A DNA stretch of 221 nt, from sequence record M10695.1. The stretch is one strand, 5' to 3'. Origin of the DNA: a phage. Both the position numbers and the translations under genes were made by a program. Positions 1 to 221 of the stretch are shown in pieces. The notes under the pieces were generated by a model. That model searched no databases. It had not been told where the DNA came from and saw nothing but the letters and a program-made list of their open reading frames with translations. Position 1 is the stretch's first letter; each line of letters starts with the position of its first letter.

Positions 1-7
1 GGGGAAC

Positions 8-20
8 CCCCCTTCGGGGG
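8..20 (+). other. 5'-proximal stem-loop: C8-C12 pairs with G16-G20 around loop TTC, or equivalently C9-C12/G17-G20 closing a C(UUCG)G tetraloop
   Basis: Direct complementarity CCCCC/GGGGG. Positions 12-17 read CTTCGG, the classic UUCG tetraloop context. An alternative pairing G1-G4 with C9-C12 is possible, so the 5' GGGG may be paired or free. Confidence 0.7.
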
Positions 21-25
21 TCACC

Positions 26-45
26 TCGCGCAGCGGGCTGCGCGA
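26..45 (+). other. Stem-loop: 8 bp stem (26-33 TCGCGCAG with 38-45 CTGCGCGA), loop CGGG (34-37)
   Basis: Perfect inverted repeat read from the sequence; 27-34 CGCGCAGC is the exact reverse complement of 37-44 GCTGCGCG. Confidence 0.75.
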
Positions 46-49
46 AGGG

Positions 50-72
50 GCCACGCTGCGAAGCAGCGTGGC
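50..72 (+). other. Stem-loop: 10 bp stem (50-59 GCCACGCTGC with 63-72 GCAGCGTGGC), triloop GAA (60-62)
   Basis: Perfect inverted repeat; the longest and most GC-rich stem in the window. Confidence 0.8.
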
Positions 73-77
73 GGTTC

Positions 78-100
78 TCGTGCGTTACCGAAACGCACGA
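78..100 (+). other. Stem-loop: 9 bp stem (78-86 TCGTGCGTT with 92-100 AACGCACGA), loop ACCGA (87-91)
   Basis: Perfect inverted repeat read from the sequence. Confidence 0.8.
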
Positions 101-106
101 AGGTCG

Positions 107-123
107 CGCCTCTTCACGAGGCG
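107..123 (+). other. Stem-loop: 6 bp stem (107-112 CGCCTC with 118-123 GAGGCG), loop TTCAC (113-117); possible extra G106-U124 wobble pair
   Basis: Perfect inverted repeat read from the sequence. Confidence 0.7.
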
Positions 124-134
124 TCACCTGGGAG

Positions 135-148
135 AGCGCGAAAGCGCT
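135..148 (+). other. Stem-loop: 5 bp stem (135-139 AGCGC with 144-148 GCGCT) closed by a GAAA (GNRA-type) tetraloop at 140-143
   Basis: Perfect inverted repeat with a GAAA loop. GGG 130-132 could also pair with CCC 151-153 across a small internal loop, but that competes with the next hairpin. Confidence 0.7.
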
Positions 149-151
149 AGC

Positions 152-167
152 CCGTGACTCGTCACGG
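152..167 (+). other. Stem-loop: 6 bp stem (152-157 CCGTGA with 162-167 TCACGG), loop CTCG (158-161)
   Basis: Perfect inverted repeat; 152-158 CCGTGAC is the exact reverse complement of 161-167 GTCACGG. Confidence 0.7.
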
Positions 168-179
168 TCGAACTCCCGT

Positions 180-199
180 ACGAGGTGCCCGCACCTCGT
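180..199 (+). other. Stem-loop: 8 bp stem (180-187 ACGAGGTG with 192-199 CACCTCGT), loop CCCG (188-191)
   Basis: Perfect inverted repeat read from the sequence. Confidence 0.75.
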
Positions 200-215
200 C
201 CCCCCTTCCGGGGGG
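200..215 (+). other. 3'-proximal stem-loop: 6 bp stem (C200-C205 with G210-G215), loop TTCC (206-209)
   Basis: Direct complementarity CCCCCC/GGGGGG. It is followed by an unpaired 3' tail, TCCCCA. Confidence 0.7.
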
Positions 216-221
216 TCCCCA
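216..221 (+). promoter_or_regulatory. Single-stranded 3'-terminal TCCCCA tail: candidate replicase initiation site (C-cluster) plus a terminal A
   Basis: The tail lies outside every local hairpin found. Qbeta replicase templates are known to end in a 3' C-cluster with an extra non-templated A, and to start with 5' G residues; this window does both. Confidence 0.55.

Follow-up and report, generated by a model that had tools for sequence, protein, structure and literature searches.

What is this 221-base stretch?

The stretch of 221 bases analysed here (the window, at its full length) raises the question of whether it is a piece of a phage or bacterial genome or a complete replicating unit in its own right. 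A reading made from the letters of the sequence had favored the second answer, proposing that the window is MDV-1 (midivariant-1), a template RNA of Qβ replicase. The same reading described it as non-coding and about 70% GC. Both descriptions proved accurate: the measured GC content is 70.1%, an ATG or a Shine-Dalgarno-like motif occurs on neither strand of the 221-base window, and the only two open reading frames of at least 20 amino acids, which are 25 and 29 residues long, both start with GTG.

To look for related sequences, we searched genome collections by BLAST and by exact string scans. BLAST against 50,697 phage records returned no full-length match, and a match to the 5'-end of Qβ was the only informative one. 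No match was obtained when the same search was run against 72,556 plasmids and 5,426 complete E. coli genomes. Exact scans with two internal stretches of 26–45 bases found nothing in 2.9 million viral contigs, and nothing in 241 million metagenome records and 185,579 species genomes. As the window was found in none of these collections, we conclude that it belongs to no sampled natural genome. The proposal that it is not a fragment of a cellular or phage genome agrees with this result, as no embedding in any bacterial or phage genome was found. Full-text literature searches with internal MDV-1 strings, written in both the DNA and the RNA alphabets, retrieved primers only, plus the small template MNV-11. 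Literature matches to GGGGACCCCCC were TNF-promoter primers or toy sequences.

High GC content and dense hairpins would by themselves also be compatible with a structured non-coding RNA or a repeat that occurs naturally in some unsampled bacterium or phage, and the window has weak, sub-threshold matches in Rfam. No Rfam family reached its gathering score, the best match being 18.6 bits against a threshold of 45 and confined to a single UUCG hairpin. Together with the missing 26- to 45-mers in the viral, metagenome and species-genome sets and the lack of any E. coli or plasmid match, this makes a natural origin of that kind exceedingly improbable. We rejected it because the genome and metagenome searches were empty and because the window matches a laboratory replicon over its full length, a match that accounts for everything.

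This full-length match came from RNAs used in a laboratory evolution study. Furubayashi et al. 2020 (PMC7378860) name MDV-1 as the source of the end regions of both their host and their parasitic RNAs, and supplementary file 1 of that eLife 2020 paper prints the full sequence of Parasite-α13 (222 nt). The full sequences in this source are given in the same orientation as the window. In a global alignment of the window with Parasite-α13, 216 of 224 columns are identical and both ends are aligned with no flank left over. The 8 non-identical columns comprise 3 substitutions, 3 one-base differences in homopolymer length and 2 terminal bases. The 5' flank of the host RNA from the same source matches window positions 1–156 with 4 substitutions, and its 3' flank matches positions 163–193 exactly.

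Primers provide an additional set of comparisons. Five primer segments that Usui et al. designed on the MDV-1 plasmid pUC-MDV-LR are all exact and tile positions 140–177 of the window. Primer 4 of PMC7378860 is exact at positions 18–34, and the forward and reverse primers for Parasite-α13 are exact at 86–103 and 165–182. Primer 3 of the same study mismatches the window solely through the length of a G-run, which has 7 G in the primer and 6 in the window. The length of the window, 221 bases, is also that given in an independent paper ("MDV (midivariant RNA, 221 nt)"). MDV-1 plasmid transcripts are 222 nt long, and the run-length and terminal differences account exactly for the discrepancy between the two.

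The window is almost certainly a complete MDV-1 RNA in minus-strand orientation, with 220 templated bases and a 3'-terminal A spanning positions 1–221 (+ strand). This identification is based on comparison with MDV-1-derived laboratory sequences, the termini of which were set by cloning or by primers. The 216/224 alignment, the exact primers and the 221-nt length all point to the molecule that the sequence-only reading had named. That reading had also called the window exactly one unit long, in line with the end-to-end alignment without flank and with the finding that no larger genome contains it. Of two observations that would have spoken against MDV-1, the lack of a near-full-length match and a colinear embedding in a larger genome, neither was made: the former match is present, and the latter arrangement was not found.

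MDV-1 originates from Mills, Kramer and Spiegelman (Science 1973). Its reference sequence is to be found in that paper (Mills et al. 1973) and, as a revision, in Kramer and Mills (PNAS 1978). In NCBI taxonomy, "other sequences" includes "midivariant sequence" as a node of species rank (taxid 31896), which the PCAWG virus pipeline handles as potential contamination. MDV-1 is thus a long-known laboratory replicon that has been studied since 1973, and there is no new genetic element here. On this point too the earlier description of a well-known laboratory replicon, as opposed to a new system, is upheld by the match to the MDV-1 backbone. The practical value of the identification lies in provenance, in the flagging of contaminants and in curation; biologically it adds nothing new. 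Genome scans should flag the MDV-1 record as a laboratory replicon and drop it from searches for new natural elements.

Strand orientation, termini and predicted folds

The window had been suggested to run opposite to the strand that is usually drawn as plus. The numbering of the classical insertion site allowed us to examine this point. Usui et al. place this site at "63-64". The primers that flank it adjoin at window position 159/160, which is 61/62 if numbering starts at the 5' G of the complementary strand, and becomes 63/64 when the 2 extra bases of the C7 and G7 runs are included. Because the published number fits only a count along the complementary strand, the window is the conventional minus strand, and the suggested orientation is correct.

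Both strands open with GGG(G) and close with CCC(C). The window reads GGGG...CCCCA, so that both termini listed in the sequence-only reading (5' GGGG and 3' CCCCA) are present, and its complement starts with GGGG and ends with CCCC. The 3'-end of the window is an A, yet there is no U at its 5'-end. De novo initiation by Qβ replicase uses GTP opposite a 3' C-run, and the enzyme adds one A that is neither templated nor copied, which explains a terminal A without a 5' U. This asymmetry is in keeping with synthesis of the strand by the replicase. Records of the Qβ genome have the same asymmetry, in that they start with GGGG and end with CCCA.

Folding calculations were controlled with 200 dinucleotide-preserving shuffles. 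The minimum free energies are −142.1 kcal/mol for the + strand (shuffle mean −99.6, z = −8.39) and −143.9 kcal/mol for the − strand (shuffle mean −102.2, z = −8.45), and none of the 200 shuffles reached this stability on either strand. The predicted folds contain 9 or 10 local hairpins that are mirrored on both strands, and several of these are perfect inverted repeats. The impression of a hairpin-dense molecule gained from the letters alone is borne out by z-scores near −8.4 on both strands and by these 9–10 mirrored hairpins.

Along the + strand of the window, the map begins with a 5' terminal module (1–34) that consists of GGGG and a C6-UUCG-G5 hairpin (7–20) and resembles the 5'-end of the Qβ plus strand. 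The complement of this module forms the 3' initiation end of the opposite strand. The next hairpin, at 24–48, is composed of helices 24–26/46–48 and 27–33/38–44 and appears in both the minimum free energy and the span-limited folds. It is followed by a perfect 10-bp hairpin with the loop GAA (50–72; inverted repeat I5) and a perfect 9-bp hairpin with the loop ACCGA (78–100; inverted repeat I9), both of which are 100% complementary and recur in the folds. A two-hairpin module derived from Qβ (95–148, with hairpins at 101–129 and 135–148), assigned by Qβ homology and covariation, occupies the center. Downstream of it lie the insertion-site hairpin (152–167), in the loop of which (158–161) the flanking primers abut at 159/160, and an 8-bp hairpin (180–199; inverted repeat I10) seen in the folds. 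In the eLife 2020 host RNA (PMC7378860), the gene insert sits in the hairpin that corresponds to window 152–167. The map closes with a 3' terminal module (200–221) made up of a C6-UUCC-G6 hairpin, UCCCC and the terminal A. Synthesis of the complementary strand would start from this module.

The two ends of the molecule can be folded in two ways. In the equilibrium fold computed in silico, the termini are paired with each other through helices 1–5/216–220 and 7–12/210–215, in agreement with an inverted repeat 2–12/210–220 that is 91% complementary. The terminal A is unpaired in the predicted ensemble. In the span-limited fold, the local terminal hairpins form and the 3' UCCCCA is free, at a cost of about 12 kcal/mol. 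The terminal hairpins at 7–20 and 200–213 (CCCCCCUUCGGGGG and CCCCCCUUCCGGGG) are near-identical direct repeats (93%). Since these hairpins repeat each other and the extreme termini are complementary, local hairpins and terminal helix constitute two competing folds. Access to the 3'-end would then depend on kinetics or on the enzyme, because the equilibrium fold pairs CCCC with GGGG. A helix between the 5' and 3' termini is, reportedly according to Ugarov and Chetverin in 2008, characteristic of "legitimate" replicase templates, and the terminal pairing predicted for the window in silico would place it among them.

A weak direct repeat (74%) was also observed between positions 17–35 and 120–138 (GGGGUCACCUCGCGCAGCG and GGCGUCACCUGGGAGAGCG). 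It joins the module that resembles the Qβ 5'-end and the module that resembles the Qβ 3'-end, and may reflect chance or a shared GUCACCU motif.

Relation to Qβ and to other replicase templates

Two segments of the window resemble the genome of phage Qβ. Positions 1–34 match Qβ 1–34 on the same strand with 88% identity by BLAST (30/34). Positions 95–142 are identical to Qβ TW18 (4091–4138) at 39 of 48 bases and to the laboratory strain Qβ Anc (4090–4137) at 42 of 48. The local score of the latter segment against Qβ is 51, whereas shuffled sequences score 22.4 ± 2.1 with a maximum of 32. The remainder of the window, 35–94 and 143–221, scores 18–23 against Qβ, which is shuffle level (mean 22.4). 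Both Qβ-like segments lie on the plus strand and are colinear with the order of the Qβ genome. From their polarity it follows that the strand of MDV-1 called "minus" by convention is the counterpart of the Qβ plus strand. Nishihara, Mills and Kramer reportedly described a polarity in 1983 that agrees with this assignment, and the central module (95–148) would, as the same work reportedly indicates, be the internal replicase-binding site.

In Qβ, the counterpart of the central module reaches across the replicase stop codon into the beginning of the 3' UTR. The structure extends further than the matched bases (95–142), into a second hairpin at window 135–148. The two-hairpin module is kept across Qβ, MX1, M11, SP and NL95, where 11 of 19 pairs show compensatory changes, and in this comparison across Qubevirus the window is nearest to Qβ proper. 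In Qβ Anc, the hairpin at 4096–4124, equivalent to window 101–129, encloses the replicase stop UAA (4119–4121), with the coding sequence ending at 4121. This stop has become UCA (TCA) in the window and the partner base has changed as well, resulting in a C·C mismatch in the stem. The other differences between window and Qβ in the 101–129 stem preserve pairing.

These similarities support, at the level of sequence comparison, the view that MDV-1 is a mosaic derived in part from the two ends of Qβ RNA. That MDV-1 is a partial mosaic of this kind was reported decades ago; the Qβ ancestry of the two parts is re-derived here with statistics and family-wide covariation. An origin of two MDV-1 parts from the ends of the Qβ genome would explain why the replicase accepts this RNA as a template. 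Qβ (Qubevirus durum) and the window share GGG...CCCA termini and the same replicase, along with about 88% identity over 1–34 and 81–88% over 95–142. They differ in that Qβ is 4.2 kb long and encodes four proteins, whereas the window contains no Qβ coding sequence. The S-site and M-site regions of Qβ are probably missing from the window as well.

The colinear plus-strand matches to Qβ 1–34 and 4090–4137 and the CCCA-like 3'-end, as in Qβ, could also be read as the signature of a Qβ genome fragment or of a defective-interfering deletion product in which the two genome ends are joined. Only about 82 of the 221 bases are Qβ-like, and these at 81–88% identity; the stretches 35–94 and 143–221 stay at shuffle level (18–23 versus 22.4), and the last 80 nt of the Qβ genome are missing from the window. 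We consider such a product highly improbable. We rejected straightforward derivation by deletion from any sequenced Qβ because colinearity does not extend over the whole length, a result that stays compatible with partial Qβ ancestry of MDV-1.

The window was also compared with other small RNAs amplified by the same enzyme, using the sequences of MNV-11 (86 nt) and further small templates printed in PMC5986701. The complement of window 1–48 is identical to the 3' 49 nt of MNV-11 (38–86) at 42 of 49 positions. In the 24–48 stem, the differences from MNV-11 are compensatory (GCGCAGC...GCUGCGC against GCGUAGC...GCUACGC). Judged from these sequences, the shared 49-nt two-hairpin terminus points to a selected initiation module that independent small templates have in common. 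MNV-11 resembles the window in being small, rich in GC and hairpins and non-coding, and in its GGG/CCC termini as well as the 49-nt terminal module; it differs in its length of 86 nt and cannot be aligned to the window beyond this module. RQ157 (RQ135-type) shows no similarity to the window, with a score of 17 that is at noise level.

Shared end modules, such as the 42/49 match to MNV-11, might indicate that the window is a different small Qβ-replicase template (MNV-11, RQ135-type, nanovariant or others) with only these modules in common with MDV-1. The probability of this explanation is vanishingly small, since MNV-11 is unaligned beyond the module, the RQ157 score of 17 is noise, and the MDV-1 backbone matches the window over its whole length. 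It was rejected on the strength of this full-length alignment. As expected for a replicase template such as MDV-1, the window has GGG/CCC(A) ends on both strands, strong structure on both strands, and a sequence that lies outside all the genomes searched.

On the basis of these features and of established knowledge about Qβ replicase, the following mechanism can be proposed. MDV-1 is small and non-coding, and is known only as a template of the RNA-dependent RNA polymerase of phage Qβ. The replicase would bind the central two-hairpin module (95–148), initiate with GTP at the 3' C-run and copy the strand. The stable local hairpins would keep product and template from annealing into an inert duplex. 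Self-folding of replicase templates is known to prevent such a duplex, and the strands are released single-stranded. If intrastrand folding keeps the two MDV-1 strands apart in this way, each could template the other and amplification would be exponential. Exponential amplification of MDV-1 by Qβ replicase is indeed reported in the literature. The hairpin loop at 158–161 tolerates insertions, which is what has made MDV-1 a carrier for probes and genes.

Sequence version and the origin of parasite-α

The sequence-only reading had recommended a count of mismatches and indels, including those in the terminal C and G runs. This count was made against MDV-1-derived sequences. At position 49, the window has G where Parasite-α13 and the plasmid-borne backbones (pUC-MDV-LR lineage) have A. 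Position 67 is C in the window and U in Parasite-α13, where the pair survives as G-U in the 50–72 hairpin, and position 158, in a hairpin loop, is C in the window and U in Parasite-α13. The G-run at 16–20 (5 G), the C-run at 200–205 (6 C) and the G-run at 210–215 (6 G) are each one base longer in Parasite-α13 and the plasmid lineage (6 G, 7 C and 7 G); RT-PCR Primer 3, with its 7 G, bears out the plasmid-lineage value for the last of these. At the ends, GGGG and CCCCA in the window correspond to GGG and CCCC in Parasite-α13 and the plasmid lineage. Each of the three internal differences in length amounts to one base in a G- or C-run of a terminal hairpin. Such runs were prone to compression in the RNA sequencing of the 1970s, and slippage of the replicase in them is plausible.

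The differences also bear on the possibility that the window is an engineered recombinant MDV-1 construct, or a cDNA- or plasmid-derived version instead of the natural RNA. MDV-1 is widely used as a carrier, and the nearest sequences compared here are plasmid-derived. Against this stand the lack of an insert or polylinker, with the 152–167 loop unbroken, and the terminal untemplated A, which is a mark of replicase-made RNA. Plasmid, T7 and SmaI versions are moreover 222 nt long, start with GGG, end with CCCC without A and carry G6/C7/G7 runs, whereas the window has GGGG, the terminal A and G5/C6/G6. A recombinant or plasmid version is thus quite unlikely, and was rejected because the window has no insert, has the classical run lengths and retains the terminal A. 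With run lengths that sum to 221, the window seems to represent the classical version of MDV-1. The 3–4 substitutions and the three G/C-run differences may stem from natural variation or from ambiguities of early sequencing, or may be what the reference itself reads. That precisely this version (G49, U86 and G5/C6/G6 runs) is a distinct natural variant of MDV-1 and not an ambiguity of 1970s sequencing is conceivable, but we hold it to be rather doubtful.

As a by-product, the analysis provides a position-by-position list of differences between the 221-nt version and the plasmid-borne MDV-1 backbones in current use. Parasite-α, a parasitic RNA from Ichihashi's translation-coupled replication system (PMC7378860), has the same backbone as the window from end to end; an evolution experiment either gave rise to it or propagated it. 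Parasite-α13 shares the window bases G40, A46 and U86 as well as an uninterrupted loop, CCGUGA[U]UCGUCACGG, without an insert or polylinker scar. Host-0/N96, the stated ancestor in PMC7378860, differs from both in having A40, G46 and C86, and its loop is interrupted between ...AGCAU and CACGG. Some of the "parasite-unique mutations" of PMC7378860 may, by this comparison, be ancestral MDV-1 states. If the window is a true natural variant and is used as an outgroup, the parasite-α of about 222 nt would retain the ancestral MDV-1 states at 40, 46 and 86. Parasite-α would then have come from unevolved MDV-1 RNA or from an unevolved backbone, and not by deletion from the evolved host RNA (N96).
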